Positions 1 to 63,074 of a DNA stretch of 64,000 nucleotides are shown one piece after another. Location of the stretch: IMG/VR virus record IMGVR_UViG_3300021399_000098; one strand, 5' to 3'. Source of the DNA: a virus. Its lineage: Duplodnaviria > Caudoviricetes. Positions within the stretch are counted from its first letter, which is position 1. Every line of letters starts with the position of its first letter. A model generated the notes under the pieces. That model made no database searches and was not told where the DNA came from. It saw only the letters and a program-made list of their open reading frames with translations. A program made the translations under genes and the position numbers.

Positions 1-912
1 ATTACAGCAAAAAAGGACAAGTGGCATGAACCTATCATCAATCACTTGAAGAGGGCTGATTACGTTACAACTACAACTCCAATTTTTGCTGACGTTATTA
101 GGCCATTTAATAAAAATGTAATGGTTTTCCCAAATGCAATTAACCCAGAGGAAAAACAATACACTGTTCCAAAGACACAAGGTGACGGAAGACTTAGAGT
201 TGGTATTATTTGTGGCTCATCACACTTGAAGGACTTGCAATTGCTTGACGGCATCGCAAAGCAAATCAACAAAGACAAGGTACAATTCATCCTATGCGGA
301 TTCGACACGAGAGGTACTAGAACCATCTACAGAGAAGACGGACAAGTTGAGACAAGACCTATTAGGCCAGAGGAAAGCGTGTGGTGCGAGTATGAAAGGA
401 TATTCAGCGACAACTATAAACTAGTTTCAGAAGAACATAAGAACTTCTTATTGCAATATAACGCACACATTGATGACCCATTTACAAATGAGCCTTATAG
501 AAGAATGTGGACAAGAGACATCAGCAACTATGCCACACACTATGCAAACGTAGATGTATTGATTGCTCCTTTGAAGGAAAACGAATTCAATAAGGTTAAA
601 TCAGAACTTAAGGAAATTGAGTGCGGATTTACACATACAGCTTTTATTGCTCAGAACTTTGGAGCATATACCCTCAACCTTATTCCAATGATTGAAAAGG
701 GTGGAAAGATTAACGAAAACGGCACTGCATTATTGGTGGATACATCTAAAAATCATAAGCAATGGGCTAAGTACATCAACAAGCTTGCTGACGATAGGGA
801 AATGCTTAAGAAGCTTCAAGACAACCTTTACAACTACGTCAAAGACAAGTATTCATTGGACACAATTTGTAAACAAAGAGTAGAATTTTATAAGAAAATT
901 GTAAATAAGTAA
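1..912 (+). CDS. GT-B fold (GT4-like) glycosyltransferase, 5'-truncated by the window edge
   Basis: Frame is open from base 1. Motifs ADYVTTTT, VFPNAI and DVLIAPL..NEFNKVKSELKEIE are typical of phage GT4-like proteins. Confidence 0.75.
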   Translation: MTAKKDKWHEPIINHLKRADYVTTTTPIFADVIRPFNKNVMVFPNAINPEEKQYTVPKTQGDGRLRVGIICGSSHLKDLQLLDGIAKQINKDKVQFILCGFDTRGTRTIYREDGQVETRPIRPEESVWCEYERIFSDNYKLVSEEHKNFLLQYNAHIDDPFTNEPYRRMWTRDISNYATHYANVDVLIAPLKENEFNKVKSELKEIECGFTHTAFIAQNFGAYTLNLIPMIEKGGKINENGTALLVDTSKNHKQWAKYINKLADDREMLKKLQDNLYNYVKDKYSLDTICKQRVEFYKKIVNK

Positions 913-1084
913 AGGAAATTACAATCAACATTACAAAAAATAACAATAATATAAATAATATAAAATTTTAAAAGAATATTATATATTAAATAAAATATAT
1001 AGTATTCTTTTTTTAATATATATTATATATTATTATATAAAGAAAAGAAATATATAAAGAAAAGAAAAATTCGTTATTCAATTT

Positions 1085-1116
1085 TTTGCTTTTTTAACTT
1101 TTTTTTTATATCTTTG
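1085..1116 (+). promoter_or_regulatory. Bacteroidota primary-sigma type promoter (TTTG-N20-TATCTTTG)
   Basis: TTTG at 1085-1088 and TATCTTTG at 1109-1116, upstream of the ATG at 1142. Confidence 0.75.
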
Positions 1117-1141
1117 CATTGAAGTTAAAAAAGTTAAAATT

Positions 1142-1708
1142 ATGATTACAACAGAAACAAAAGAAAAAAACTTAAAGTTATTTTTTAAAAAACTCTCACA
1201 GCTTGGCATTAATTCAGAATGTCTTGAGAGCATGTATGGTGAAAAAATCCTCAACGCAAGTTTCACCAATTCAAATGAGTATGGAAACGCATATGAAGGT
1301 TCGTTCCTAGAAATCGTACTTAAAAAGCTTACTCCATATGCTGTTAAGCTTAACGAACTTTTGCCAGAGGATAAAAGGGTTGACAAAGATTCCCTAGTTA
1401 AAATTTGTCTTCTTCACCAAATTGCCAAAGCGATTAGACTTGTGCCAAATGATAATCAATGGGAGGTTGAAAAGAGAGGCTTTGTCTACAAGTATGACAG
1501 CAACTTGCCATCAATCAGAACTGGTCTTCATTCCCTAGTCATGTGTCAAAACTGCGGAATTCAGTTCACGGCAGAAGAGGCAGAGGCAATGACGGTCAAT
1601 GACAGAGACATGACTGACGAGCAAGCTAGATGGTTCTCAAGCATAATGGCAACCATTGTTAGGCAAGCTAGTGAATTAACATACTTAGAAATTAACGATA
1701 AGAAGTGA
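1142..1708 (+). CDS. HD-domain-like protein (degenerate, HD replaced by HQ)
   Basis: AYEGSFLE..., ICLLHQIAK and a later EEAEAM resemble phage HD phosphohydrolases. Confidence 0.55.
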   Translation: MITTETKEKNLKLFFKKLSQLGINSECLESMYGEKILNASFTNSNEYGNAYEGSFLEIVLKKLTPYAVKLNELLPEDKRVDKDSLVKICLLHQIAKAIRLVPNDNQWEVEKRGFVYKYDSNLPSIRTGLHSLVMCQNCGIQFTAEEAEAMTVNDRDMTDEQARWFSSIMATIVRQASELTYLEINDKK

Positions 1709-2397
1709 TGGAAAATACAGATAACTTGACGTATGACAACAGGGCATACATTGAAGGTGATACAAAAGATTTATTCACCTATCTGAAAGAAGCAATAGGA
1801 CATTCACCACTTGAGGTTGGTTTCAAAAAACTAGACAAGGATGCAGTTATACCAAGCTATGCTCACGATGGTGATGTTGGAATGGATTTTACAGCAATCA
1901 GTGTAGAATACGACCAAGAAAAGGACATATACATTTATCACACTGGTCTTGCTTTCGAAACGGAAAAACATTACGGTGCATTTCTTTTCCCAAGAAGTTC
2001 TAACAGAAAAACGGATGCTTACCTATGCAATCACGTTGGAATTGCTGACACTGCAATCTATAGGGGTGAAATAATGTTTTGTTATAAAAACAGAACTTCA
2101 CTTGAAGTTAGGGCAGAAATTGAAAAAAGCAGATATTTGATTTCGCGCTTGTCTTATGAGCCATTTACTGTAAGCAATGGCGATGCGGTAATGTTTCAAT
2201 GGCCACATGTGGCAAAGGATGCAGAAAATGCAGGAAATTGGATTTATGACAATCCAATGAATTTTGCACCTTATAAAGCAGGTGATAAAATAGGTCAAAT
2301 GGTAGTTCTTCCTTATCCAAATGTGAAATTGGTTGAAAGAATGGAATTATCTGAGACTGTTCGTGGAGATAATGGTTTTGGTTCAACAGGAAATTAA
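1708..2397 (+). CDS. dut: dUTPase (trimeric type) with an internal insertion
   Basis: GDVGMDF, PRSS, GIADTAIYRG, GDKIGQMV and the C-terminal RGDNGFGSTG motif. Confidence 0.92.
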   Translation: MENTDNLTYDNRAYIEGDTKDLFTYLKEAIGHSPLEVGFKKLDKDAVIPSYAHDGDVGMDFTAISVEYDQEKDIYIYHTGLAFETEKHYGAFLFPRSSNRKTDAYLCNHVGIADTAIYRGEIMFCYKNRTSLEVRAEIEKSRYLISRLSYEPFTVSNGDAVMFQWPHVAKDAENAGNWIYDNPMNFAPYKAGDKIGQMVVLPYPNVKLVERMELSETVRGDNGFGSTGN

Positions 2398-2399
2398 TT

Positions 2400-2936
2400 A
2401 TGAACATATTAGAAGTATTTTTTTGGTATTGCAAGTCTATGGGAATTATGGGTGAAATGTGGAACATATACCAAAATGCTAATTTTGGAACATGGAAGTA
2501 CGACCAGTCTTTAAACAAATCATATTACGGCAAATACAAATTTAAAGAACATCTTGAATTTAGTTGCAACAGATATGGTATGATAGGACTATTTTGCGGT
2601 TTGGAAGATTGTTGCCATCACACTCTATACCGACTAATGAAAAGTGAAAAGATTAAAAGGGCTAGAAGAAATTGGGTTAGATTTGTTAAAAACAACCTAA
2701 TCGTTTTACCTTCATTTGTTAAAGAAGGGGATAGGATACATGCAGTTACTAATTTTATTACTGTAGAAGGAGTTCTTGAAAAAATAACAGAAAATAAGGA
2801 ACTTTTGGTAAGAGACAATAATGGAAGAGTCAATTATGTAAGTTTATTTAGACCTATTACCATAAACGGAAAAAAAAGAGAACCAAAGTTTATAATTAAG
2901 AAAAATAGAAAAATATATGGGGCTGATAAAGAATAA
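2400..2936 (+). CDS. hypothetical protein
   Basis: 178-aa ORF tightly packed in the operon. Confidence 0.6.
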   Translation: MNILEVFFWYCKSMGIMGEMWNIYQNANFGTWKYDQSLNKSYYGKYKFKEHLEFSCNRYGMIGLFCGLEDCCHHTLYRLMKSEKIKRARRNWVRFVKNNLIVLPSFVKEGDRIHAVTNFITVEGVLEKITENKELLVRDNNGRVNYVSLFRPITINGKKREPKFIIKKNRKIYGADKE

Positions 2937-4029
2937 AGTGTATTACACATATACAGATGTTACAATATTACCAGGAGTGATAAGTAACATCGAACACAGA
3001 AAAGAATGTATTCCTTTAGATGAAAACGGAATGTTACCATTGTTTACTGCTCCTATGGACACTGTTGTTGATGAGCATAATTGCCAACAGTTTACCGATG
3101 AAATGGTTTACGCAATACTGCCGAGGACAGTTTCTTTTGAGACTAGGCTGTCATACTCCATCAAAAATCGTTGGGCTGCATATTCACTTGCAGAGTTTGA
3201 AACTGCTTTTTGCACTGAAAGTAACAAGCTTGACGAATCAAACGGTATAAAGGTATTAATAGATATTGCAAACGGCCATATGAAAAAAGTTCTAGACTTG
3301 ATTAGGGCAGCAAAGAACATATACGGTCAGAACATCACCATAATGGTCGGAAATATAGCGAATCCTTACACATTTGAAAAACTCTCAAAAGCTGGTGCGG
3401 ATTTCATTCGTTGCGGAATAGGAAGTGGTTGCGGATGCTTATCTACGAGCAATACTGGAATACATATGCCAATGGTTTCACTTATTGATGAAATTTCAAC
3501 AATTAAAAAAGACTTTAGTCTTAAAGCTAAAATAGTCGCAGATGGCGGTATAAGGAATTACTCTGACATTATTAAGGCAATCGCTGTTGGTGCTGACTAT
3601 GTGATGGTAGGAAGTGTGTTTGCCAAGATGTTTGAATCGGCAGCACCGAAATATCCGAATTCTGAAGACTGGGCAGAAAAACCACTTGGAGTGGAACTTA
3701 GGGATTTGGAAAACATACACAAAGAAGGAAATGCTTGGTATGGCTCATACAACCATAAGGAAATTTTTCTAGGTAACATCAGTCTTAAGTTCTATGGAAT
3801 GGCATCAAAACAAGGGCAAATCGCTTTAAATGGCACTAAAACCAAGACAAGTGAAGGTTTGATGAAAACTTTGCAAGTTGAATATACAATGCATGGATGG
3901 TGTATGAACTTTATTGATTACCTTCGTTCTGCAATGTCATATGTCGGAGTTAAAACGTTAGATGATTTTAGAAGAGAATCTGTAGTCATTATAAATTCTC
4001 CAAATGCAGTTTCTGCTGTTAATAAATAA
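2917..4029 (+). CDS. GMP reductase / IMP dehydrogenase family protein
   Basis: TAPMDTV, IDIANGH, GIGSGCGC (catalytic Cys loop), ADGGI, FYGMAS and LRSAMSYVG. Confidence 0.88.
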   Translation: MGLIKNKVYYTYTDVTILPGVISNIEHRKECIPLDENGMLPLFTAPMDTVVDEHNCQQFTDEMVYAILPRTVSFETRLSYSIKNRWAAYSLAEFETAFCTESNKLDESNGIKVLIDIANGHMKKVLDLIRAAKNIYGQNITIMVGNIANPYTFEKLSKAGADFIRCGIGSGCGCLSTSNTGIHMPMVSLIDEISTIKKDFSLKAKIVADGGIRNYSDIIKAIAVGADYVMVGSVFAKMFESAAPKYPNSEDWAEKPLGVELRDLENIHKEGNAWYGSYNHKEIFLGNISLKFYGMASKQGQIALNGTKTKTSEGLMKTLQVEYTMHGWCMNFIDYLRSAMSYVGVKTLDDFRRESVVIINSPNAVSAVNK

Positions 4030-4043
4030 CTTTTTCAAAAAAT

Positions 4044-4080
4044 TAAGTGATTAAGAATTGATTCTTAGTCACTTTTTTTT
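4044..4080 (+). terminator. intrinsic terminator
   Basis: aagtgattaagaat-tg-attcttagtcactt hairpin followed by a T-tract. Confidence 0.65.
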
Positions 4081-4095
4081 ATTTTTTAATAAAAA

Positions 4096-4785
4096 ATGGA
4101 AAATAGTATTTCAGTTATATTTTGTTCAAAGAAAAAGGGCGAAGACAGCAAAGAGTTTATTGAACATATAAAAAACACATGCGGATGTGATACTCATGTG
4201 TTGCATGTATATAACCCAGATGGTGTTTCAATTTCAAAGATATACGCAGACATGCTAGTATCTAAAGACATTGGAACAGACATCATTGTGTTTATACACG
4301 ATGACATAGAATTCTTAAGAAAAGACTGGGGAAAAGAAATCTTAAGGCTATTCAACGAGCACGAAGACTATGGAATCATTGGAGTCGCAGGTTCAGCTCA
4401 ATTTGATGAAAAGGGTGCATGGTGGAATTATGAAAAGAAATTCGGACAAGTCTTGCACAGAAGTGAGGGTAAGTCTTGGCTAACAGCATTTTCTCCATTA
4501 TTGGATAAGGATTTGCAAGAAGTGGCTGTAATTGACGGACTTTTCATTGCAGTGCACAAGAAAAGAATTTCTGACAATTTCTCTAGGGAACTTAACGGTT
4601 TTGATTTCTATGATGTGTATTTTTGTTTGAAAAACCTTTTGGCTAAAAAAACAAAAATTGGTGTTACAACCAATATTAGGTTGGCGCATAACTCAGTAGG
4701 AAAACTGAAGGACACATGGTATACAAATAGGGAAATAATCAATAAAATTTTTGGGGATAAATACCCAATAGACGTATTAAAATAA
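4096..4785 (+). CDS. glycosyltransferase, GT-A / GT2-like
   Basis: IIVFIHDDIEF (DxD-like), GIIGVAG, IDGLFIA and FDFYDVYFCL. Confidence 0.8.
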   Translation: MENSISVIFCSKKKGEDSKEFIEHIKNTCGCDTHVLHVYNPDGVSISKIYADMLVSKDIGTDIIVFIHDDIEFLRKDWGKEILRLFNEHEDYGIIGVAGSAQFDEKGAWWNYEKKFGQVLHRSEGKSWLTAFSPLLDKDLQEVAVIDGLFIAVHKKRISDNFSRELNGFDFYDVYFCLKNLLAKKTKIGVTTNIRLAHNSVGKLKDTWYTNREIINKIFGDKYPIDVLK

Positions 4786-4808
4786 TTTTTGGTACAATTT
4801 TTGCTAGT

Positions 4809-5060
4809 ATGAAAATAAGTGAAATGACAACTGAACAAATTTTTACACTCTACAACATTGCTTGTGATATTTGTAGAGAATATTCAAGAATGACTGATGG
4901 TTATGTCCTTGCAACTGGTGATAATGTTCTTGACCCATCTGCTGTTTTACCACGCGACATACAAAACACCATCATCGAAAGACAACAATATTTTGCCGTT
5001 AAGGACAAAATAATGAATGAACTTAAAAAAAGGTTATTAACTGAAATAGAATATGAATAA
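4809..5060 (+). CDS. hypothetical protein
   Basis: 83-aa ORF in the operon. Confidence 0.55.
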   Translation: MKISEMTTEQIFTLYNIACDICREYSRMTDGYVLATGDNVLDPSAVLPRDIQNTIIERQQYFAVKDKIMNELKKRLLTEIEYE

Positions 5061-6033
5061 AATAAAGAAATACCTACTTAACATCTGGTATGGTCTTCCA
5101 TTCGGCCTTAAAGGTGCTGATACTGAAATCATGGGAAGTGGAAGCAAAGACGAAAATGGTACTACGATAGGACAAGAAGTATCTGACGAAAGGGTGGCAA
5201 AGCATCTTCTAAAGGGAGAAGTGACGCAAGAAGTAGAGGAACTTAGATATAGAACATACAAGGTTGCGAATGAAGCTGATAATTATGAATATTTGGGAAA
5301 TGGTGTTGCGGTTAAAAAAGAAGCTAAACCAAGGAAGGACAGAACGAAATACAAGTTTACCCAAGAGAACGAAAACTTATGTGAATCTGTATTGGATGCA
5401 TTGAAACAAGTTGGCAACTATGGAATGGAAAAATATAGGTTTGAAATCGACTATACAGAGTTCATTAGATTTAAGGTTGAAAAATATGCGACCAAGATTG
5501 ACGTTAACATAGACGATGATAACGGAATCGTAGAGACTACCTTGCATTTCAACACAGAGCCTAACCCTTACGATGCAGTTTCAAAGCCATTCATCAATGA
5601 ATTGGAAAAAATAGCAACAGCTAAAAACGAACATGAAATAGCTAGGAATGAAATTGCATTATCCATCAAGAGCATTTCATTTGCCACATACAAAGCTTCA
5701 AATGAAGATGACTTGGTAACTTATAGTTTCAGCAACGGAAAGTTCAAATCCTTTGAAAAGAAGGGATATGAATATCTGATGACTTATTCATGGGATGAAT
5801 ATGTAAGGCTTCCTCTTAGCCTAGAAAGCAAATATTATTCCGCATCAATGGCCGAAAAGTACAAGAACAAAGAAAGGAAAGACACCCTTGTTTCGATGGT
5901 GGAAAGTGAAAGGAAAAGGTATTGCTCAGTGTGTGGAAAAGAAATATCAGTGTATGATGCTGACATACAAGAGGCTGATGGGCATGAGCCAGTATGCAAA
6001 GAATGTATGCAAAAAGCATTTAATAAACAATAA
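5053..6033 (+). CDS. hypothetical protein with a C-terminal CxxC..CxxC zinc finger
   Basis: CSVC...CKEC at the C-terminus. Confidence 0.65.
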   Translation: MNKIKKYLLNIWYGLPFGLKGADTEIMGSGSKDENGTTIGQEVSDERVAKHLLKGEVTQEVEELRYRTYKVANEADNYEYLGNGVAVKKEAKPRKDRTKYKFTQENENLCESVLDALKQVGNYGMEKYRFEIDYTEFIRFKVEKYATKIDVNIDDDNGIVETTLHFNTEPNPYDAVSKPFINELEKIATAKNEHEIARNEIALSIKSISFATYKASNEDDLVTYSFSNGKFKSFEKKGYEYLMTYSWDEYVRLPLSLESKYYSASMAEKYKNKERKDTLVSMVESERKRYCSVCGKEISVYDADIQEADGHEPVCKECMQKAFNKQ

Positions 6034-6050
6034 AAAACATTATATTTTAT

Positions 6051-6650
6051 ATGATAACAATTGGAATTGAATTAAATCACGTCATAAGAAATATTAACAA
6101 GCAAATTGTTAAATACTATTCAAAGGAATATGACCCATCAACTGACATTGATGAGATTGATGATAAGGAAGATGTGCTAGAAACATACGCCAAGTTTAAG
6201 AGCAGATACGATAAGAACAACTTTCTGTTTATAGACTATCCTTATGAAATATTTGGATGCGCGAATACAATGGAAAAGAAACTGCCAAGCAAAATAACCA
6301 ACTGGTTAACTGAAATTTCAAACATTGAAGACAAGGACATCAGAATCATATTCTACAGCTTGAATGAAGAGGCACTTACCATTCAGTCAACTTTCTTCTT
6401 CTTAAGCAAGATTGGAACTAGGGTAAGAAAAGTAATATTCCCTAAGAGCATAGATGAAGTGTGGGATGAATGTGATGTCATAATAACCGCAAGGAATGGA
6501 TTCTTTGAAAAGGGTATCCCAGATGGCAAGAAAGCTGTTCTAATCAACAGACCATTCAATAAGGAATTTAAAGACAAAGCCATTTTGAATTATGATAATT
6601 TAAGTGACCTAATTGATGATAAAAACTTTTTTAATGAAATTACAAAATGA
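6051..6650 (+). CDS. HAD-fold 5'(3')-nucleotidase-like protein (degenerate motif I)
   Basis: N-terminal ITIGIELNHVIRN in place of IGIDxDGV; C-terminal LINRPFN. Confidence 0.55.
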   Translation: MITIGIELNHVIRNINKQIVKYYSKEYDPSTDIDEIDDKEDVLETYAKFKSRYDKNNFLFIDYPYEIFGCANTMEKKLPSKITNWLTEISNIEDKDIRIIFYSLNEEALTIQSTFFFLSKIGTRVRKVIFPKSIDEVWDECDVIITARNGFFEKGIPDGKKAVLINRPFNKEFKDKAILNYDNLSDLIDDKNFFNEITK

Positions 6651-6985
6651 ATGAAAGCATGACATTAATTTTCGACATTAACAAAATCACCGACTTTGTT
6701 TTTGGAAATCCAAATGACAGAACAAATGAGGTGGAGATAACGGAGTCTTTCGTGTTTGACAAGAAATTGGATAAGATGATTCCAAACGCAAAGGAAGTTA
6801 AGGAAGTAAAGGTCAATGACTATACTGGCCAAAACACTATCCGTTATGACATGGTTAAAACGTTTATCGACATTCTAGACGCAGTTGAAGACACAAATGC
6901 AATGACTCTAGGACAGAAGATAACATATAACACAATGCAAGCTTACGAACTAATAAAAGACATTAAAAACAACGACAATGAGTGA
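6647..6985 (+). CDS. hypothetical protein
   Basis: 112-aa ORF that overlaps its neighbours at start and stop. Confidence 0.6.
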   Translation: MNESMTLIFDINKITDFVFGNPNDRTNEVEITESFVFDKKLDKMIPNAKEVKEVKVNDYTGQNTIRYDMVKTFIDILDAVEDTNAMTLGQKITYNTMQAYELIKDIKNNDNE

Positions 6986-8066
6986 GAAAGATTTAAAGAT
7001 TATTGAAAACATCAATAGGGAAATTGAAAAAATTGACAAAAAGACCAACAGGGTTTATTTCTTTGTAATTGACACTAAGGGTGTGCCTAGCGGAAGCCTA
7101 GAGTACATTTATAAATTAGCAATGATTCTAAAGGATGAAGGATATGATATAAGTATGCTACACACTGAAGATGAGTTTGTCGGAGTCGGTGAATGGTTAG
7201 GAGAAGCCTATGCTGCTTTACCACACTATAACGTAAACAAAGATGAAACTGGTACATCACCTTCAGATTTGTTGTTTATCCCAGAAATTTTCTCACAAGT
7301 TATGAATCAGACAAAGACTCTTCCTTGCAAGAGGGTTGCCATCCTTCAAAACTACAACTATGTCGTTGAGCAGATGCCATATGCTGCACAATGGGGAGAT
7401 TTCGGAATCATGGAGGGTATAACAAATTCAAAATACCAAGCTGCTGAGTTAAATGAGTCATTCCCATATGTAAAGCTTACAAAGGTTACTCCTTTCATTT
7501 CAAAGGTATTCGGTACAACAAATGAGCCTAAAAACATGGTTATAAATATTGTTGCGAAAGACCAGTCAGATATAAAGAAGGTTGTAAAGCCATTCTATTG
7601 GAAATACCCAATGTTTAAGTGGGTATCATTTAAGGAGCTTAGAAACTTGCCAAAGACTGACTTTGCAAAGGCATTGCGTGAGAACGCTGTAACCATCGTC
7701 ATAGACGAAGATGCAAGCTTCTGCTATTCAGCACTAGAGGCAATGAAGAGTGGGGCAATCACTATGTGCAAAGTTCCCAATACTACTTTGGATTGGGCTG
7801 ATTCAGAGGACGGAGTTTTGCCAAACTGCTGCGTGTGGTTTAACGACTATGACACGTTACACAAACAAATTGCAAGCGTTGTCCGTTCTTGGATTACTGA
7901 TAAAGTTCCAACTGTGTTGACAGAAGAAGCTAAGAAGGTGTGTGAGCAGTTTACAGAAGACAAGACCAAAGAACAACTATTAACTTTTGTTTCTTCAGTA
8001 CTAGGCAAAAGAAAGAAGGAAATGGAAGACCTAATAACACAAATTAAAAACAAAAAGGAAGAGTAA
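6978..8066 (+). CDS. GT-B fold glycosyltransferase-like protein
   Basis: SGSLEYIYKLA, DLLFIPEI and FCYSALEAMKSG (resembles the GT4 E-x7-E region). Confidence 0.65.
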   Translation: MSEKDLKIIENINREIEKIDKKTNRVYFFVIDTKGVPSGSLEYIYKLAMILKDEGYDISMLHTEDEFVGVGEWLGEAYAALPHYNVNKDETGTSPSDLLFIPEIFSQVMNQTKTLPCKRVAILQNYNYVVEQMPYAAQWGDFGIMEGITNSKYQAAELNESFPYVKLTKVTPFISKVFGTTNEPKNMVINIVAKDQSDIKKVVKPFYWKYPMFKWVSFKELRNLPKTDFAKALRENAVTIVIDEDASFCYSALEAMKSGAITMCKVPNTTLDWADSEDGVLPNCCVWFNDYDTLHKQIASVVRSWITDKVPTVLTEEAKKVCEQFTEDKTKEQLLTFVSSVLGKRKKEMEDLITQIKNKKEE

Positions 8067-8068
8067 TT

Positions 8069-8680
8069 ATGAAGGAATTTTTAATGGAAGATAGTAATGT
8101 TGGACACATCAATTCTGATGTATCAATCTGTGTTCACAAATATGAACAAGCCAAAAAAAATGACAATTTTAATGATAGAATCAAAGAATATTTAAATAGG
8201 TGGAAAAAGTTAGGATTTTTGGAAGGATTTCCAGAGGATAGAAAGGAAGAGCTAGCATTTGCATTTGAACAGCTTGCAGTGTTCTTGATTTTCTGTGAAG
8301 ATGACCAAACTGACAGGTTGTTCGATAAGGATGAATACGGCAATCGCCCATTTGAAACGGTTGGTTTTCCAATGACAAGAAGAATTATTGGAAACTTAGA
8401 GCCAAATGTATTTGATTTCCAAAAGTTTTTGGAGTATTGCAAGATATTCAACGTAAATGACATCATTAGATTTTTAGAAACTAATAAATTATGCTTTCAA
8501 CGCATTGACTATGAGGCAGAAGGTGTAGCTATATGTTGTGAAATGATTGAAAAGAAATTTAAAAATCCTGACAGAAATGATAAGGAAATCAAAGACGAAA
8601 GTCTTGACAGATTTTATAAAATAATTGAGGATAAAAAGAAACAGAATGAAGGAACTAGTAGTGATAATACCAATGCATGA
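8069..8680 (+). CDS. stand-alone paralogue of the major capsid protein N-terminal region
   Basis: MKEFL..VG.I, NRWKKLGFLEGFPE..KE and FETVGFPMTRR align with MCP MKEFL..VGNI, NRWDQLGFTEGLPEGIKE and FETVVFPIIRR. Confidence 0.75.
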   Translation: MKEFLMEDSNVGHINSDVSICVHKYEQAKKNDNFNDRIKEYLNRWKKLGFLEGFPEDRKEELAFAFEQLAVFLIFCEDDQTDRLFDKDEYGNRPFETVGFPMTRRIIGNLEPNVFDFQKFLEYCKIFNVNDIIRFLETNKLCFQRIDYEAEGVAICCEMIEKKFKNPDRNDKEIKDESLDRFYKIIEDKKKQNEGTSSDNTNA

Positions 8681-9422
8681 ATTTGGTAAAGAAAATATTG
8701 AGTTGTTAAATAAAGCCGTTGATTCAGTACCAAATGAAATCAATGTATTACTTTCAGTACCAAAGGGCATTGATGGGAAGAAATTGAAGGGAATCAGTGA
8801 CAGACTTGGTGTTATATCTGAATCAGAAGGTAGTTCTTTTGCTGAACTTGTAAACGCTGCCGTTGATAATATTGAAGAGAAGTGGTTCTCAATTCTTGAG
8901 TTCGATGATACATATACACCTATTTGGTTTGATAACGTCAAGAAATATATGGAATATATGCCAGAGGTAAGCGTGTTCATGCCTTTGGAAGATGTAGTTG
9001 ATTTCAACAACTCAAAATATATTGGATTCGGAAATGAAGCAGCATGGGCATCTTCATTCTCAAACGAAATCGGTTACATTGACAATGAATGTCTTCAGAA
9101 CTATTTTGATTTCTACCTAACAGGTAGTATTTTCAACACTGCCGATTGGAAAGAAATCGGAGGACTGAAACCATCCATCAAAGTAACGTTTTGGTACGAA
9201 TTCCTTCTTCGCCTAACAAATAAGTCAAAGAAAGTGTATGTAATTCCAAAGGTGGGATATATACACGCACTAGGAAGAAAGGGTTCTTTGATTGAAACTT
9301 ATAAGAGCACGATGTCAAAGGAAGAAACACAATGGTGGTTCGACCTTGCAAAACGTGAATATTACTTTAAGGAAGACAGAAAGAAGGAATATAAGAAAAC
9401 AGAAGATAATACCGAAGAATAA
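8646..9422 (+). CDS. glycosyltransferase family 2
   Basis: Starts MKELVVIIP (ATG at 8646); WFSILEFDD, EIGGLK and WYEFLLR. Confidence 0.75.
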   Translation: MKELVVIIPMHEFGKENIELLNKAVDSVPNEINVLLSVPKGIDGKKLKGISDRLGVISESEGSSFAELVNAAVDNIEEKWFSILEFDDTYTPIWFDNVKKYMEYMPEVSVFMPLEDVVDFNNSKYIGFGNEAAWASSFSNEIGYIDNECLQNYFDFYLTGSIFNTADWKEIGGLKPSIKVTFWYEFLLRLTNKSKKVYVIPKVGYIHALGRKGSLIETYKSTMSKEETQWWFDLAKREYYFKEDRKKEYKKTEDNTEE

Positions 9423-9433
9423 ATTAGTTATTG

Positions 9434-9470
9434 AAAAATGGCATTAATCTTTTATGGTTAGTGCCATTTT
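9434..9470. terminator. bidirectional intrinsic terminator
   Basis: aaaatggcattaa...ttagtgccatttt inverted repeat with A and T tracts. Confidence 0.7.
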
Positions 9471-9619
9471 AAATGCATCAAAACGGCAGCACAAAGATTT
9501 TCTCTTGAAAATGTGAAAGAAAGTGTGTTGAAAATACGCAGATTTGCCTTTGATAAAATATTTAGTAATAAAATAATAACTAAACAGGGGATATTTCCTA
9601 AATATAAATATCATTAGCT

Positions 9620-10396
9620 ATGCCAGAAATTTGCGTAACCGAAGAAAAAGTTAAGAAAAAAAGAGGCAGAAAACCTTCCAAGGAAAGGAAAGGCTATTTC
9701 TACGAAGAACAAGAGAAAGCTGTTGTGGATTACATTTCAACTGACGATGAGAAGGTTAAGAACAGAATCTTCAATGCTACGTTGAAACCAGCATTCACTA
9801 AAATGATAGAATCAATCATTAGAAGATATAATTTATATCCACCTGACGAAGAATTCAAAGAGACATTCGATGATACAATATCATTTTTAATGACAAAGTT
9901 GTCTTGTTTCGACCCCACCACGAATTATAAAGCATATTCATACTGTGGAACAATTTGTAAAAACTACCTCATCTACAAAATCAACCAATTTTCCAAAAAT
10001 CAGAAAAGAAACCTATCGTATGACTCACCTTATGAGTCAAGCATTCAAAGTGACATTAATGACAGTTTAAGGTATTCTTATGATGAAAGTGACCCAAGGA
10101 AAACGTTTTTGTCAGAGCTTACTTGCAATACCGTATCCAACATTGAAAAGATATTGTCTGAAAAGGACAAAATGAAACTAAACGAAAATGAAATAAAGGT
10201 TGGTCAAGCATTGGTCAACCTAATGAAAAACTGGGATGAACTTTTTGCCCAAATGGGTAGTGATAAGTTTAACAAAAGTTCTATTTTATTGTTCTTGAAA
10301 GAAACTACCATGTTAAGCACAAAAGAAATCAGGGATGCCATCAGAGTTTACAAAAAAAGATATTATGATGTTAAGTGGAAACTAATCAATGAATAA
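9620..10396 (+). CDS. phage sigma factor, T4 gp55-like (late transcription)
   Basis: Sigma region-2-like DDTISFLMTKLSCFDPTTNYKAYSYCGTICKNYL, comparable to the gp55 FDP..NPFAYFT pattern. Confidence 0.65.
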   Translation: MPEICVTEEKVKKKRGRKPSKERKGYFYEEQEKAVVDYISTDDEKVKNRIFNATLKPAFTKMIESIIRRYNLYPPDEEFKETFDDTISFLMTKLSCFDPTTNYKAYSYCGTICKNYLIYKINQFSKNQKRNLSYDSPYESSIQSDINDSLRYSYDESDPRKTFLSELTCNTVSNIEKILSEKDKMKLNENEIKVGQALVNLMKNWDELFAQMGSDKFNKSSILLFLKETTMLSTKEIRDAIRVYKKRYYDVKWKLINE

Positions 10397-10432
10397 ATGA
10401 AAATTATAATATTTATAAACAAAGATTAGACT

Positions 10433-31179: not shown

Positions 31180-32856
31180 TTAGTCACCTTTTCTCCACAC
31201 ATATTTAAATAAACCACAATCCCATATCCTATCATATCCAAGTTCTTTCGCCATTTCTAGCTCTGTCATTGTCATTGGGAAATCATACTTTTTGTGTAAT
31301 ATTGATTTACACATAGACATTTTATGGACACGTTTGTATTTATCAACTTTTTCATTATAATATCTATAATCTGGTTTTGTTATTGATTCTAGTACGAAAC
31401 CAAGTTTGGTATATAGATTGTTATTGCTCCAAGGTGTCCACCTTCTGTCTGCAAATGATACAACAGCTTCAGACTCATATTTCCTTACAAAATAAGCAAA
31501 CATTTTACTAGCAACTCCTTGGTATATGTAATGATAATCAGTTGCGAATCTAGTAAGCTCCCACCCATTGTTTGTGACATTACCATTTTTTAGTGCCATT
31601 ACTGCAACGAGTTTATCTTGGTAGAACCCACCAATATAAACAGTATTCTTATAAAATCCTTGAATATGAAACTTATCTAGAAATTCTTTAGCATCATTAC
31701 TTAATATTTCACGGACTTGGATTTTACGCCCAGCTATTCGTTGCAAATTATAATCCTTACCAAGTATATGTTTTATTTTCGTCAATACAATATCTTTATG
31801 GTTAATGTATTCATCTTCAAAAATATGAATTAATCCATATCCTTTCTCATTGCATTGTAACGTTTTTCCTAAGTGATATTTATGATTTTTCTTGCCAAAA
31901 AATTCACTATGCCACTTTAAACCATCAAATTCAATACCAATTCTAACACTTGGGACTAATATATCAATTTCCCTACCTATTAAAATTTGTCTGTTTGCAT
32001 CGTGTTCTACCCCAAGTTCTGAAATATAATCACTAATTTCCTTTTCATATGAAGAAATGAATCTATTTTTTGACACAACAAGATTTCCAAGTTTCATATC
32101 CCTCTGTGCTTGCTCTAGCATATCTTTTGACATAACTCTTGCGTCTGGATATTGCTTCTTAAATTCCACCATTCCCATACCATGTGAGTTTCTAAGGTGA
32201 CTATAAGTAATCTTAGGCATTTTTTTTCCACAAATAGGGCATACCACATAGTTATTAGGGTCTTCGAGTCTTATTTCTTTTTCAATCACCTTAGTTTGAT
32301 TTTTGAAATATTTATAATCCTCTGGGTGTCTCTCAAGATGTTCCTTAACAGTCATATGGTGAACTGAAGTTAAGTGATGTGTAAAAGCACCACTCTTATT
32401 ACCAATATCATTAGTACCCCAATCGCAGTAAGGGCATTTAATAGAATATTCTATATCTTTTTCTTCCACAATATCAAACCATTGCTCCCACCAATAGTTA
32501 CCAGTTTCCATATAGTATTTTCTTCTGTCATACAAAGTAGGAACTTTAACATGGTACACTTTCTCTATATGTGTCGTCAGTAGTCCAGCATTGTTCATAT
32601 GGTCTTTATATTTAGTACCGTTGTTTTTGTCAACTGCGACATAATGATACCCATCATGTTCTTTGTATTTCTTTACACGATAGTCAGCGACAACAAATGA
32701 ACTCTTGTCCATTGGCTGTTTACCTTTTTTCCTCAATTCAACCCCATTGTCGGAGAGTATTTTTTTCACTTTCAATTTGCCAATATGATATTTCTCACAA
32801 ACATCATATATACTCATACCATTTTGATAATCATTTATTAATTCCTCTGTATTCAT
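31180..32856 (-). CDS. free-standing Hef-like endonuclease (Zn fingers + PD-(D/E)XK + GNAT/Mom-like C-terminus)
   Basis: CPYC..H...H and CPIC..H; EIDI...IGIEFDGLKWH; WELTRFA, SFADRRW and IWDCG. Has its own TAnnTTTG promoter at 32878-32908. Confidence 0.75.
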   Translation of the reverse strand: MNTEELINDYQNGMSIYDVCEKYHIGKLKVKKILSDNGVELRKKGKQPMDKSSFVVADYRVKKYKEHDGYHYVAVDKNNGTKYKDHMNNAGLLTTHIEKVYHVKVPTLYDRRKYYMETGNYWWEQWFDIVEEKDIEYSIKCPYCDWGTNDIGNKSGAFTHHLTSVHHMTVKEHLERHPEDYKYFKNQTKVIEKEIRLEDPNNYVVCPICGKKMPKITYSHLRNSHGMGMVEFKKQYPDARVMSKDMLEQAQRDMKLGNLVVSKNRFISSYEKEISDYISELGVEHDANRQILIGREIDILVPSVRIGIEFDGLKWHSEFFGKKNHKYHLGKTLQCNEKGYGLIHIFEDEYINHKDIVLTKIKHILGKDYNLQRIAGRKIQVREILSNDAKEFLDKFHIQGFYKNTVYIGGFYQDKLVAVMALKNGNVTNNGWELTRFATDYHYIYQGVASKMFAYFVRKYESEAVVSFADRRWTPWSNNNLYTKLGFVLESITKPDYRYYNEKVDKYKRVHKMSMCKSILHKKYDFPMTMTELEMAKELGYDRIWDCGLFKYVWRKGD

Positions 32857-32970
32857 ATAACTTATATTTTTATAGTGCAAAGATATATATTTTTTTCTAA
32901 TTTTCAAACATTTATCAATTATATATAATAAATATCAGAAAAAAATAAAAAGGGTTGGATAAAAACGATA

Positions 32971-33029: not shown

Positions 33030-35072
33030 TTATCTAAACTCATTAATTGACCAATGTACAAGTCCATCAACACGTACATGTCCATAATAGCGGTTGTTAA
33101 CCATCTTCTTCGCATAACGTGTCATAATTCCCTTTACTGGTGCAAAGTTGAATGGGTTATACATAGTAGGAGTTAACTGCATTGGCACATATGGTGCATA
33201 GATGTAACCTGTGTCAAGAAGTGACTTACCCTTATGACCGATGATAATTGACCAGTGAGGTGAATATGGGTCACGATAAACAGTGTAACGTGCGTTCAAT
33301 GAACCAATCTTCTCAATACCCATATTGTACTGGTCGCTCTCTGCTGATGCGTCTGAAACGTGGAAGTACTCAAGGTTGTCGAACAATGCGCTAATTTCTG
33401 AAGATACAACTATGAAGTTTGCACCACCACGAAGAGTTGACTTGTGAATCTGTGCAGAAATCTGGTTAATCTTAGTCATAAGCTCTTGGTTCCAGTCCTT
33501 CTGAGTGTAGTTAGTTGAGAATGCTGCCATACGTCTCCAACCGTTAACATCCCAACGAGCCTGCCAAGGTGCACCCTTACGAAGGTCACGAAGAATTTCA
33601 CGGTCAATTTCTGCTGCAATCTGCTCTGAAAGGATAGCGGTCAACTCAGCCTCTGCGTCAATGTTGTGGAATGCAGAAACGTCTTGTGCCAACTCTGGTG
33701 ACCATGTAGCACGAAGCTTTCTTTCCTCAACTGATACTGTTACTGAATCAAGCTTGAAGCTAACCTCACCGATTTCGGTCTCAAGCTCAAGAGAATCATA
33801 CTGTGCCCAAGCAATCTTGAACAAACTTGCAATATTTTCCTTAGTTGCCTCGTAGTCGATAGAACCGCCAGTGGTCTTAACGATTTCTGCGTCTAAAGCA
33901 GCAGCGTCAACACCAATGTAACCATCGATAGTACCTGCTTGCTGGATAACTGGTTTAGCCAAATCCAACTCAATATACATCTTACCTTCAGCATCGCAAG
34001 CTGCACCGTATTCTACGATACCCTTACCATACTTCTGAGTAACAACTCTGAAAGGAACAGACTCGAACTTACGGAAAGCTGCGGTCTTAACAGTGTCAGA
34101 ACCAGGAGCATTAGCTGCTGCGAATTCCTTCTGAGTGATAACCTTCAAAGAAGCCAAGAAACCTTCGGTATCCATTTCGTTACCATCAGGACCAGTCAAC
34201 TTTGATGCGTTGAATGATGAGAAACCATCAATCTCAAGAATCAAGTTACGGATAGTTCCGTCAAATCCACTCTGGAAGTACATGTTCAAGTTGTCAGCGC
34301 CAAAAGGACGAACACCACCAGGGGTTAGGAATACTGGAACAGCACCACCAACCTTGATAGTAACCTTACCCTTTGAGTTGTCATACAAGAAGTCGTTGTA
34401 GAATAAGTCATACAAACTCTTCTGGAAATACTGAGTTACCTCTGGACCTGCTTGACGAAGAGCAGTTACACCAAGACCTTCAGCAGCAGCACGCTCTTTA
34501 GCTGCATCGAAGTCGGTTGCATCCTCAAGAGTCTCGTTCAACTGTGGAACGTACCATGAGTTCTTGTCAAGTTCACTTACAGTCTCGTCTGGAAGATAGT
34601 AACGTGGTTCAACACGGCCTTCCTTGTTACGGTTTACACGGTCATAACCCATGAGACCCTTGTGACGACCAGTAGTGCCATCGATGATGTCACCAGGAGT
34701 TGCGCCAGTTGCATCCTCTGGAAGTTCCCACTCTCTCTCTGAAGTAACAGGGAGGATGAAGAACAACTTACCAACTGGAAGGTTCATAGCTTGAACTGAA
34801 ACGATGTCATTAGCAAGCAACTTGCTAAATACACGTCTAATGATTGGGAAAACAACGGTCTCAAATGAACCGCTATTGTCTGAAGCAGTAGCCTCGTAAA
34901 TCAAGTGCTTTGCCTCATTTTCGTACAATGTAGCAACATTCTCCTTGATACCCTCTGGCAAACCTTCGGTAAAGCCGAGCTGGTCCCAGCGGTTCTGAAT
35001 GTCCTCACGTATCTGTCTTTGTGCGTTGTACTCGATATTACCAACTACACCACTTGATAGAAATTCCTTCAT
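33030..35072 (-). CDS. major capsid protein (T4 gp23-like) with a large insertion
   Basis: IRRVF..L.A.DIVSVQAM..PVG, RKLRATWSPELAQD..AFH.IDAEAEL, EIDREI, YAPYVP and GIMTRY. Confidence 0.95.
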   Translation of the reverse strand: MKEFLSSGVVGNIEYNAQRQIREDIQNRWDQLGFTEGLPEGIKENVATLYENEAKHLIYEATASDNSGSFETVVFPIIRRVFSKLLANDIVSVQAMNLPVGKLFFILPVTSEREWELPEDATGATPGDIIDGTTGRHKGLMGYDRVNRNKEGRVEPRYYLPDETVSELDKNSWYVPQLNETLEDATDFDAAKERAAAEGLGVTALRQAGPEVTQYFQKSLYDLFYNDFLYDNSKGKVTIKVGGAVPVFLTPGGVRPFGADNLNMYFQSGFDGTIRNLILEIDGFSSFNASKLTGPDGNEMDTEGFLASLKVITQKEFAAANAPGSDTVKTAAFRKFESVPFRVVTQKYGKGIVEYGAACDAEGKMYIELDLAKPVIQQAGTIDGYIGVDAAALDAEIVKTTGGSIDYEATKENIASLFKIAWAQYDSLELETEIGEVSFKLDSVTVSVEERKLRATWSPELAQDVSAFHNIDAEAELTAILSEQIAAEIDREILRDLRKGAPWQARWDVNGWRRMAAFSTNYTQKDWNQELMTKINQISAQIHKSTLRGGANFIVVSSEISALFDNLEYFHVSDASAESDQYNMGIEKIGSLNARYTVYRDPYSPHWSIIIGHKGKSLLDTGYIYAPYVPMQLTPTMYNPFNFAPVKGIMTRYAKKMVNNRYYGHVRVDGLVHWSINEFR

Positions 35073-35138
35073 ATAATTTAATAAATTATTTTTAAGTTAT
35101 TTTTTTATTATAAATACACACAAAAATCAAAAAGTGCT

Positions 35139-36656
35139 TTATTTCATCATTCTGTGCATCAAATCAAGAGAATCTAACATGTCAGGCGACTTGTAGATAG
35201 TTGTCTCATTGATTTTCTTTGAACCTTCAACCGTAAGACTCTTGTCTTCAGTGATGTTCATTTTATTTGATTTCTTTAGGTCACGACTGATGGATTCGTA
35301 AAGATTCTTAGATGCCTCAATTGTTTTAGCCTCCTTTGAGAATCTAGAAATGATTTCTTTCTTCTCATCTTGTGAAGTTGAATTTTCAGAAATCAACTTG
35401 ATAATCTGTGCAAGATTATGGTTGGTTACAGCAGCTTCCTTCAATGACTGCATAACGTCAGTCAAAGTGGTCTTAAGCTCCTTGTTCTCAGAAAGAGCCT
35501 TGTTTGCTCTTCTCATGAAGCTCTCGTTGGTCTTCTCATCACCATTGACAGTAACGGTAACATCTACATCGCCACTGTTGTAACGAGGCGTTGCAGTGCC
35601 CTTAACTCTACTGCCACCCTTACTCATAGAACGAGCGTTACGTCCGTTTGAGTTAGGAACGTGAGACTTAGATGTGCTGTTCTGTTGAACAAAACCACCA
35701 ACGTTAGTAGCCTCTTCTATGTTCTCTTCCTCAAGTTGCTTACCCTTGCTGTCGTTGAATGGCTTGTCTGCCTTATTTTTCTTGCTGCCTTTATATCCTG
35801 ACCAAGGCTTTTCAGTTCCATGAGGAACACCTGCATCCCAGTCGTTTACATTCTTGCCTGGTTCTGACATACCTGGATTGGTCATTACATCCTTTTTCTG
35901 ATAATTGTCAGTGTATCCTACGTTTGAATCATACTCTAAAACTAACTCAAACATTCTTTCTGTTGATTCATTCATATCGTCATAATCATTATTTTCAAAA
36001 TCATCTTCTGCACTGTCATCAGTAATTACTTCATCGTCACTTTCGACTCCAGTTGCTTCACCTTCGTCATCAAGTTTGATTAGGTACTCAGCTCCAGTTT
36101 CATTGTCTTGAATGTTGACATTTCCATTGTCATCTTTATGAACAAGAATCTGGTCATCATTCTTCATTAATTTGTAAACCTTTACGATTTCCTCGTCTTC
36201 CGCATTTGTAAAGTCATACTCATCGTCTGATATTTTGTACTTGTCAAAATCAGCCCATTCATCGCCATCTTCGCCCTCATCTTCTACACCGTCAATTGCG
36301 TCATCTACTTCGCCCTCATCGTCAGTTTCACCTGCGACTTCATCAGACTCCATATCTTCATCACCTTCAGTGTCAGCAGAATCAGCGTCCGTACCAGCGT
36401 CAGTGCCTTCTACGCCATCCGTAGGAGCTTCACTTGATTCGGCATCATCTGTAATATCAGAACTAGTATCTTCCACTTCCTCTTCTTCGTAGTCCTCATC
36501 ATTGCCCTCAGACAATAACTTGGCATATGTATCACGCACAGCTTCATCCAAAAGGGTCTTGACTGCGCTTTCGGTATTTTCCCTCAAAGAGTTTGCGAGT
36601 GTGTTGTAATCTAATAAAGATTCTCTAACTACTTTGCTTCTAATATTTTTGCTCAT
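35139..36656 (-). CDS. prohead core scaffold protein (gp22-like)
   Basis: Acidic low-complexity and coiled-coil sequence directly upstream of MCP; many xxE-S motifs. Confidence 0.7.
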   Translation of the reverse strand: MSKNIRSKVVRESLLDYNTLANSLRENTESAVKTLLDEAVRDTYAKLLSEGNDEDYEEEEVEDTSSDITDDAESSEAPTDGVEGTDAGTDADSADTEGDEDMESDEVAGETDDEGEVDDAIDGVEDEGEDGDEWADFDKYKISDDEYDFTNAEDEEIVKVYKLMKNDDQILVHKDDNGNVNIQDNETGAEYLIKLDDEGEATGVESDDEVITDDSAEDDFENNDYDDMNESTERMFELVLEYDSNVGYTDNYQKKDVMTNPGMSEPGKNVNDWDAGVPHGTEKPWSGYKGSKKNKADKPFNDSKGKQLEEENIEEATNVGGFVQQNSTSKSHVPNSNGRNARSMSKGGSRVKGTATPRYNSGDVDVTVTVNGDEKTNESFMRRANKALSENKELKTTLTDVMQSLKEAAVTNHNLAQIIKLISENSTSQDEKKEIISRFSKEAKTIEASKNLYESISRDLKKSNKMNITEDKSLTVEGSKKINETTIYKSPDMLDSLDLMHRMMK

Positions 36657-36830
36657 TTAGAAAATATTTTTAATACATTATTTTAAATATAAATATAGCA
36701 CAAATACAAAAAAATTACGTTAAATCCCTAAAATAATAGCATTTAACTGTTTTTTCATACCTGCATTATATATAAGCTATTATATAAATATTTACATTGT
36801 CTCAAATATTTATAATAAAAAAATACTAAA

Positions 36831-40529: not shown

Positions 40530-40617
40530 ATTGTTAGTATTTTCTTTTATTGCTTTATTTCTTATAAATATAAGTAAACAACAAAAGGTGCAACATTTGA
40601 GTCACACCTTTATCATC

Positions 40618-42648: not shown

Positions 42649-42701
42649 TATAAACCTTTTCTATAAAAAATAATTATTTTTATATAAATATCAAGACTAT
42701 C

Positions 42702-58496: not shown

Positions 58497-58611
58497 TTTA
58501 TTTTTTGGCAAAGATATATAAAAAAATGTTAAAAACAAAATTTATTATGAACAATTTTACTTGATTTTTGCCTGACAATGATTATATTTTAAATGTAAAA
58601 TTGAAAAAATT

Positions 58612-61128: not shown

Positions 61129-61306
61129 CTCTCATAATTTTCAATTTTCATAATTTTCAAATATTTTATAGTTAAACTGAAGGGGGAAGCGATTTATATA
61201 AACAATAACTTCCCCTAATTTTTTTTGGAAAATAAGCAAAAATATGTTAAAATCTTTTGTTAATTCAATTTTTTTTCATATATTTGCACTTGTAAATCTA
61301 TAAAAC

Positions 61307-63009: not shown

Positions 63010-63040
63010 AAAAATGGAGGCAAATAACCTCCATTTTTTT
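63010..63040 (+). terminator. intrinsic terminator
   Basis: aaaaatggagg-caaataa-cctccattttttt. Confidence 0.75.
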
Positions 63041-63074
63041 GTTTTTTATAAAAATAATGTATATATTTGCACAT

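Follow-up and report, generated by a model that had tools for sequence, protein, structure and literature searches.

What use does a large phage have for a short gene that starts out like the gene for its major capsid protein (MCP) and yet is kept outside the late block? This question is raised by an open reading frame (ORF) at positions 8069-8680 (+ strand) of a 64,000-nucleotide stretch of DNA, IMG/VR virus record IMGVR_UViG_3300021399_000098, which in its full length we refer to as the window. The source genome is of the uncultured, T4-like type of roughly 300-410 kb. The ORF encodes a protein of 203 amino acids (aa; P0002), here called the mini-MCP, and is the type-A allele of a hypervariable accessory cassette. 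An earlier, sequence-only reading of the locus had described it as a stand-alone copy of the MCP N-terminus and had offered a decoy of capsid-sensing immunity, an assembly regulator or an adaptor for neighboring glycosyltransferases (GTs) as possible functions. The comparisons described below indicate that the mini-MCP combines two separate parts of the MCP and that its gene comes and goes, and diversifies, among relatives in which the MCP is almost constant. We tentatively favor the possibility that the protein is a soluble mimic of unassembled MCP.

Homology of the mini-MCP to the major capsid protein

The MCP gene of the window (33030-35072, - strand; 680 aa, P0001) encodes a protein of the gp23 type (Pfam PF07068, E=8e-73), which also matches PHROG 138 and the PDB structures of T4 gp23 (E about 1e-28). 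It is the only gp23-type capsid gene in the window, has the late-type motif TATTTATA upstream and lies 26.4 kb from the mini-MCP gene on the opposite strand. The resemblance between the two proteins, which the sequence-only reading had noticed by eye, turned out to be significant and far beyond chance in pairwise and profile alignments alike. BLASTP aligned mini-MCP residues 33-113 with MCP residues 16-88 at 39% identity (E=4e-11), and a family profile built from 153 stand-alone members, from which MCP fragments had been removed, matched MCP 1-86 through its positions 26-110 with 81 bits. MKEFL is the N-terminus of both proteins, and a degenerate DNA pattern for this start found just those two sites in the window (0.02 expected). 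Mini-MCP residues 1-113 (8069-8407, + strand), with the motifs MKEFL, RW..LGF.EG and FET..FP..RR, are homologous to the MCP propeptide and the start of the N-arm, for which the source-like segment in the MCP comprises residues 1-88 (34809-35072, - strand). The matched MCP region does correspond, as had been claimed, to the T4 gp23 propeptide plus the start of the Gol-equivalent stretch, since MCP 72-109 aligns with T4 gp23 93-130. The Gol-equivalent stretch itself, 29 residues, we take to be MCP 72-101, equal to T4 gp23 93-122.

A second match lies much further along the MCP. Positions 136-166 of the family profile matched MCP 462-492 (33597-33689, - strand) with 14 bits, which corresponds to E=1e-6 for a single target and to E=1e-3 when all 918 six-frame ORFs of the window are searched; the next match was noise (6.6 bits), and nothing above noise was found among these ORFs outside the two MCP segments. 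In the mini-MCP the segment comprises residues ~143-166 (8495-8566, + strand; RIDYEAEGVAICCEMIEKKF) and carries the D.EAE motif, and its counterpart in MCP 462-492 reads NIDAEAELTAILSEQIAAEI. This part of the MCP aligns to T4 gp23 ~275-305, the spine helix (MCP 470-492 with gp23 283-305), and the spine-helix residues of T4 gp23 include G292, V306 and V307 (PMC9546572). The spine-helix match is short and thus weaker than the N-terminal match. The same two-segment colinear pattern was seen again in the MCPs of eight related genomes, and the assignment is confirmed by an intermediate family member, P0141, whose second module extends beyond the spine helix and reaches into the A domain (MCP 472-593, E=1e-8). 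P0141 also indicates that evolution ran from the MCP to the mini-MCP, with an internal deletion first and a C-terminal truncation next.

Taken together, the alignments describe the mini-MCP as two colinear helical pieces of the MCP joined by a linker of ~30 residues. The sequence-only reading had the protein diverge, after its N-terminal part, into an unrelated helical tail; the tail is indeed helical in the structural model, but it is not unrelated, since residues ~143-166 are the spine-helix homologue. The family profile gave no match to MCP 90-460 or 495-680, and the mini-MCP is without the E-loop, the insertion domain, the P-domain sheet and the A domain, that is, without the HK97 beta core. 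Because these parts are missing, it cannot join the capsid lattice. An AlphaFold2 model of the full MCP reached a mean predicted local distance difference test score (pLDDT) of 36.8, and the agreement between the mini-MCP and MCP models is weak and limited to helix positions.

As a separate observation, the MCP has 680 aa against 521 aa in T4 gp23, and the alignment to T4 spans residues 72-109 and 381-654 only. Residues ~110-380, roughly 270 in number, constitute a much enlarged or different insertion region.

The mini-MCP family

A profile search of 1.8 billion cluster representatives yielded 293 clusters (at 50% identity) with E<=1e-3. The members are mostly stand-alone proteins of 120-215 aa in which both the MCP-like N-terminal part and the C-terminal 'D.EAE' helix are matched, and the family is acidic (median isoelectric point 4.9). 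Tandem two-module mini-MCPs also occur (P0038, P0044 and P0150), and two members, P0066 and P0071, come from one Bacteroidales metagenome-assembled genome (MAG), pointing to the existence of genomes with several paralogues. In P0141 the mini module is fused to a partly deleted MCP. The longest contig is 51,785 bp for P0049, for P0044 and for the MCP P0236, which suggests that all of them may lie on one contig. Among the distant members, the P0079 group is found on contigs of ~330 kb.

The concern that the ORF might be a decaying fragment was dispelled. Full-length homologues were found from 93% down to 38% identity, and the pairwise ratio of nonsynonymous to synonymous substitution (dN/dS) is about 0.1-0.3 in both halves of the mini-MCP at saturated dS. 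AlphaFold2, given 20 sequences, returned a confident, compact and all-helical model with no strand (pLDDT 88.7; predicted template modeling score 0.85). The mini-MCP gene is thus intact and under purifying selection.

Searches for a characterized relative of the family met with little success. Pfam gave no match for the mini-MCP at E<=0.1 and none for ten diverse members at E<=10, there was no PHROGs model for the mini-MCP or ten diverse family members, and a sequence search of the PDB with the family profile returned chance-level matches only. At the level of structure, Foldseek found nothing in the PDB at E<=0.001, and the best VIA-align wide score (Z 5.3) fell on generic helices, a result that is uninformative for a helical bundle. 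BFVD contained one probable homologue, an uncharacterized Myoviridae protein of 166 aa (E=0.01), and a weak match of the mini-MCP model to an MCP N-terminal fragment. Among cultured phages (50,697 phage records), nothing was found by tBLASTn with the mini-MCP and two distant members or by megablast with the mini-MCP locus. Searches for related loci with single distant family members also found nothing, and a scan of IMG/VR with a degenerate DNA pattern led back to the same clade only. We found no description of the mini-MCP family in the literature searched. The idea that conserved cysteines might form a metal site was dismissed because the cysteines are not conserved across the family.

Presence, loss and mobility of the cassette

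The mini-MCP gene lies between a GT-B-like gene (6978-8066) and a GT-A-like gene (8646-9422), both on the + strand, and a survey of 33 IMG/VR loci holding this gene pair showed how variable its presence is. A mini-MCP was found between the two genes in 15 of the loci, a remnant in one and none in 17, and the position between the GT-B-like and GT-A-like genes is kept in all carriers. Complete genomes gave a similar picture: exactly one copy is present in each of G003, G004 and G005, G012 carries one at this locus (L050), and no mini-MCP was found anywhere in G007 (409.5 kb) or G009 (312 kb), so that the gene is missing from two of the six complete genomes searched. In the nearest record, G001, the neighbors are 97% identical to those of the window, and a 466-bp deletion removes mini-MCP codons 1 to ~155, leaving a remnant of 45 codons. 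On a tree of the GT-B-like protein, at least seven changes between presence and absence are required, of which 4-5 are forced by well-supported branches; four strongly supported sister pairs, and a fifth with weaker support, differ in their mini-MCP state. Mosaic recombination could contribute to this pattern. The mini-MCP is an optional cassette that has been lost repeatedly.

The boundaries of the cassette are those of a short direct repeat. The left copy of the 9-nt sequence ATGAAGGAA is the start of the mini-MCP gene (8069-8077, + strand) and the right copy is the start of the GT-A-like gene (8646-8654, + strand), and the 577-bp unit between repeats is the segment missing from relatives without a mini-MCP. 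In one pair of loci with identical flanks, the locus without the gene (L048) equals the locus with it (L046) minus exactly the inter-repeat segment. The repeat explains the recurrent clean losses of the mini-MCP. The MCP gene begins with the same 9 nt (35064-35072, - strand), and this plausibly explains why an MCP-derived cassette landed at this particular site.

Partial duplications of the 5' end of the MCP gene do occur in the clade. In G004 (L016:1501-1606, about 250.4 kb), codons 1-35 of the MCP gene are duplicated exactly, as a 106-bp copy that lies 176 kb from the MCP gene itself. The copy forms an ORF of 49 codons and lies about 1.2 kb from an HNH-like ORF; such duplications perhaps arise via mobile endonuclease activity. 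In the window, a homing/HNH endonuclease of 575 aa (31180-32907, - strand; phrog_3339, E=2e-85) is encoded directly downstream of the MCP gene.

Allele types and divergence

Where the mini-MCP gene is present, it varies more than its surroundings. In 52 of 55 pairs both flanks were better conserved than the mini-MCP, and for five of six relatives it was the fastest-evolving of nine block genes. Its alleles fall into three types that are 31-47% identical to one another: type A (the window, L032, L034, L039 and L041), type B (L036, L040, L043, L046 and L050) and type C (L047). Many type-A sequences are 84-93% identical. The distribution of the three types ignores the flanks. For example, L034 and L036 are 97% identical in the GT-B-like protein and 42% identical in the mini-MCP, and for L041 and L050 the corresponding values are 92% and 39%.

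The MCP, in contrast, is 92-94% identical in relatives and its N-terminus is nearly invariant, to the extent that G005, with a mini-MCP, and G007, without one, are identical over 115 residues. We had considered that presence of the mini-MCP might be linked to changes in the MCP N-terminus, and this was ruled out as no correlation was seen. Beside the MCP gene lies a gene for a protein of 505 aa (35139-36656, - strand) that is acidic and of low complexity in its long N-terminal part and helical in its C-terminal part. Neither Pfam nor PHROGs gave a match for this protein, which, by position and composition only, is probably the scaffold. This scaffold-like protein is 54-80% identical in relatives, far more variable than the MCP, and is a candidate phage partner of the mini-MCP. 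Its identity to the protein of the window is 70-80% for four genomes of type A and 75% for one of type B, with no obvious link to allele type.

Transcriptional setting

The octamer TATTTATA, read on the strand of the gene, is found 15-60 nt upstream of 13 genes, including those for the MCP, the scaffold-like protein, the prohead protease and the portal, and the genes it precedes are mostly structural or within the structural block. The window contains 26 copies of the octamer where 6.5 are expected (examples are at 35109-35116, 36688-36695, 40563-40570, 42683-42690 and 10410-10417), and the octamer is the reverse complement of T4's TATAAATA, making it a candidate late-promoter core. The octamer is absent from the + strand of window positions 1-10409, hence none stands upstream of the mini-MCP gene, in agreement with the remark of the sequence-only reading that a late promoter is lacking.

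The mini-MCP gene sits inside a tightly packed + strand block (4096-9422). A strong terminator-like hairpin (4045-4074, + strand), with a 13-bp stem followed by a T run, stands just before this block, and after the hairpin there is no recognizable promoter for the block. Several copies of the Bacteroidota-type promoter consensus (TTTG, 15-23 nt, TAnnTTTG) occur just 5' of gene starts, on the + strand at 1085-1116, 61256-61286 and 63038-63069 and on the - strand at 58509-58539 and 32878-32908; overall there are 13 matches, weakly above the 7 expected by chance, and they are likely to mark early genes. It is plausible from this arrangement that the mini-MCP is expressed before, or apart from, the late genes. 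The promoters, together with the Bacteroidales MAG carrying family members, suggest that the host belongs to the Bacteroidota.

Possible functions of the mini-MCP

Bacterial immunity is often set off by capsid proteins, which rank with its most common triggers, as exemplified by Lit, CapRel, Avs7 and Dsr1. Before the T4 head expands, the N-terminal region of gp23 (to about L106) is located in the head interior, where it probably touches the scaffold (PMC9546572), and the N-terminal ~100 residues bind EF-Tu and include Gol, the trigger of Lit (PMC3014915). Avs7 senses the MCP plus EF-Tu (bioRxiv 10.64898/2026.01.04.697583). The scenario toward which we lean, without great confidence, is that the mini-MCP acts as a soluble mimic of unassembled MCP for a partner that recognizes the MCP, that this partner is more likely to be a variable host factor, and that the function is one of counter-defense. 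In this scenario the mini-MCP would resemble newly made, unassembled MCP in soluble form and would occupy a partner recognizing the N-terminal or inner face of the MCP. Candidate partners are a defense protein that senses capsids or, as with Lit or Avs7, a trigger linked to EF-Tu, and the mini-MCP would then be an anti-defense blocker or decoy of use in some hosts only. Our reasoning for this is that the mimic is gained or lost and diversifies whereas the MCP and the neighboring genes do not, which makes a variable host partner likelier than conserved assembly machinery. The decoy idea as raised in the sequence-only reading also fits the population data, in which the gene is optional, shuffled and hypervariable. 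A broader proposition, which we regard as doubtful, is that the family as a whole may form an unrecognized class of counter-defense, comprising soluble, non-assembling copies of the N-terminal or inner face of the MCP that would be made before the MCP, would blunt capsid sensing (by EF-Tu-linked sensors such as Lit or Avs7, for example) and would diversify through allele shuffling as part of an arms race with the sensors of the host.

Several points weigh against a mimic of this kind. A mimic should track the MCP, yet the mini-MCP is 39% identical to it and has diverged freely, which means that only the motif residues RW..LGF.EG, FP..RR and D.EAE can carry the mimicry. The mini-MCP aligns to the MCP as far as residue ~88 and covers about the first half of the Gol-equivalent stretch only. 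An MCP epitope presented early could also trigger a sensor instead of blocking it, and in the case of a Lit-type system a Gol-bearing decoy would be more likely to set the system off than to block it. The assignment of the mini-MCP as non-late is based on the motif, the scaffold-like protein varies too (54-80%), so that a phage partner is possible, and patchy, shuffled genes are typical of other accessory functions as well.

It is also possible, although we think it rather improbable, that the mini-MCP is a non-essential modulator of head assembly. It would attach, via the surfaces that the pro-MCP uses, to the scaffold-like protein, to the portal or to the MCP itself and would thereby delay or tune the nucleation, size determination or fidelity of a very large capsid. 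The parts of the MCP that it copies are exactly those facing the scaffold in T4, the T4 length mutants A66D, A94V and G97S fall in that region (PMC9546572), the conserved motifs are common to the mini-MCP and the MCP, and the scaffold-like protein is itself variable. Such a role is harder to reconcile with the fact that two complete genomes and 17 of the 33 loci do without the gene in the face of an unchanged MCP N-terminus, with its position outside the late block, with the occurrence of extra paralogues and tandem forms in some relatives, and with the three allele types being independent of scaffold identity in the five genomes compared. A role in folding appears unlikely to us. Here the mini-MCP, by presenting the EF-Tu-binding region and the spine helix, would pre-engage EF-Tu or a chaperonin, as a helper or titrator, and so allow the later flood of MCP to fold correctly. 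The spine helix is where the gp31-bypass mutations of T4 gp23 (G292S, V306I and V307I) are located (PMC9546572), and a contact between Gol and EF-Tu has been proposed to serve gp23 translation or folding, EF-Tu being bound by the N-terminal ~100 residues of gp23 (PMC3014915). A general helper, however, would be expected to be conserved, not optional and hypervariable, and no chaperonin-related gene is linked to the mini-MCP.

That the mini-MCP is packaged, as an internal or an ejected protein of the head, is about as unlikely as the folding role. An MCP-like propeptide would in this case serve as a capsid-targeting signal into the prohead core and would then be trimmed by the protease. T4 gp23 is cut after E65, and by analogy LIYE/A in the MCP (residues 57-61; the slash marks the cut) is the likely maturation site. 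A prohead maturation protease gene is present (36831-37568, + strand; phrog_207, E=3e-44), the first five residues of the mini-MCP are the same as those of the MCP, the propeptide is homologous, and type-B alleles keep L-I-x-E/A (LITE/A and similar) at the position aligned with the putative MCP site. The window allele, however, has LIFC/E there, and [LIVM]-x-E is kept in 24 of the 153 family members and lost in 129, indicating that processing by the prohead protease is not a conserved property of the family. The MCP cleavage site is itself inferred from T4, no late-type motif stands upstream of the mini-MCP gene, and the 'propeptide' is part of the fold in a model that consists of a single compact bundle. 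We give very little credence to an adaptor or substrate of the neighboring GTs, one that would recruit these enzymes to capsid protein or would itself be glycosylated. The position of the gene between the GT-B-like and GT-A-like genes, its coupling to them and a 35-nt overlap in carriers speak for this possibility. The adaptor proposal of the sequence-only reading is weakened by the 17 of 33 loci where the GT pair is intact and adjacent without a mini-MCP, and the site can be explained solely by the 9 nt of microhomology where the GT-A-like gene starts, the overlapping tail is missing in allele type C, and the GTs are more conserved than the mini-MCP. Least credible of all is a functionless by-product of partial MCP duplication, tolerated and unused. 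Partial MCP duplications such as the 106-bp copy in G004 do occur and the mini-MCP is often lost, but the reading frame has stayed open over 38-93% identity with dN/dS at 0.1-0.3 and dS saturated, the two-piece architecture is conserved in what is a broad and old family, and the fold prediction is confident.

Relation to known systems

A close precedent for the mini-MCP is the T4 gp23-type MCP itself (PF07068, HK97 fold), with which it has in common a homologous propeptide and N-arm start, the spine helix and the motifs RW..LGF.EG, FP..RR and D.EAE, all in the same order. Unlike this MCP, the mini-MCP has 203 instead of 680 aa, lacks the HK97 core, a Pfam match and a late motif, is optional and evolves far faster. 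There is precedent for an MCP N-terminus with a function of its own: in HK97 gp5 (the delta domain) and T5 pb8 (the N-terminal domain), the scaffold function is carried by this part of the MCP. These domains, which we liken to the mini-MCP by description, are likewise helical MCP N-terminal regions facing the prohead interior, but they belong covalently to the MCP, are essential and are cut off by the protease, whereas the mini-MCP is free-standing and dispensable. With regard to the Gol/Lit/EF-Tu system of T4, the mini-MCP spans the counterpart of the EF-Tu-binding N-terminal quarter of gp23 and ends its match ~15-17 residues into the Gol-equivalent stretch; the second half of that stretch is unrelated sequence in the mini-MCP, and EF-Tu binding is putative. 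To our knowledge, there is no Lit homologue in the likely Bacteroidota host.

Two further systems are similar in design. CpmB of SaPI1 is a small helical protein that mimics the capsid-binding end of the phage 80alpha scaffold and competes for its partner. Like the mini-MCP it copies one side of the capsid-scaffold interface; however, CpmB comes from a phage parasite and imitates the scaffold, whereas the mini-MCP comes from the phage itself and imitates the capsid protein, and the two are not homologous. The T4 internal proteins IPI-III and Alt carry an N-terminal capsid-targeting sequence that is cleaved at L/I-x-E. The mini-MCP resembles them in having an N-terminus in common with a head protein, and some of its alleles keep L-I-x-E/A; it differs in the loss of the L/I-x-E motif from the window allele and 129 of 153 members and in its location outside the late or head block.

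In the full-text literature searched, we found no phage-encoded capsid look-alike that counters capsid sensing. The mini-MCP of this clade fits the population pattern of an arms race, being optional, repeat-bounded, repeatedly lost, hypervariable and shuffled. If it does block capsid sensing, it would represent a new principle of counter-defense and would provide a handle on the capsid sensors of Bacteroidota. Alternatively, a role in tuning head assembly would make it a rare case, in a 400-kb phage, of a capsid-scaffold interface that exists as a protein of its own. In both cases, the mini-MCP shows which parts of a gp23-type MCP can fold and act alone.

Neighboring genes and the overprinted C-terminal tail

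The upstream neighbor, the GT-B-like gene, encodes 362 aa and stops 2 nt before the start of the mini-MCP gene, and the 3' end of the latter overlaps the downstream neighbor, the GT-A/GT2-like gene of 258 aa, by 35 nt. This arrangement indicates that the mini-MCP is translationally coupled to the neighboring genes. The sequence-only reading had placed the gene between glycosyltransferases, a placement that depends, for the two direct neighbors, on language-model look-alikes only. Neither direct neighbor has a Pfam match. Look-alikes in the ESM Atlas do exist for both, in that the clusters nearest to the GT-B-like protein contain the GT1 domain PF00534 in 13-78% of their members and those nearest to the GT-A-like protein contain the GT2 domain PF00535 in 21-88%, each of which is a lead only. 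Another gene of the same block (4096-4785) is a glycosyltransferase by Pfam (PF13712, E=2e-27).

The overlap (8646-8680, + strand) is dual-coding. It encodes the tail of the mini-MCP, NEGTSSDNTNA, over the start of the GT-A-like gene, MKELVVIIPMHEF, and the tail simply results from reading the first 11 codons of the downstream gene (MKELVVIIPMH) in another frame. Of 21 pairs compared, 15 have a dS of 0 in the tail and the remaining six, all with L008, have about 0.37, compared with values above 1 elsewhere in the gene, and in the AlphaFold2 model the tail is disordered (pLDDT <50). In allele type C, both the overlap and the NEGTSSDNTNA tail are missing. We had considered that the invariant NEGTSSDNTNA might be a docking peptide or other functional motif; this was ruled out, as its invariance is explained by overprinting, the last 35 nt of the mini-MCP gene being shared with the downstream gene. 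Near 59210, 'SSDNT' occurs once more, within a different gene and not in its reading frame, which we regard as coincidence.

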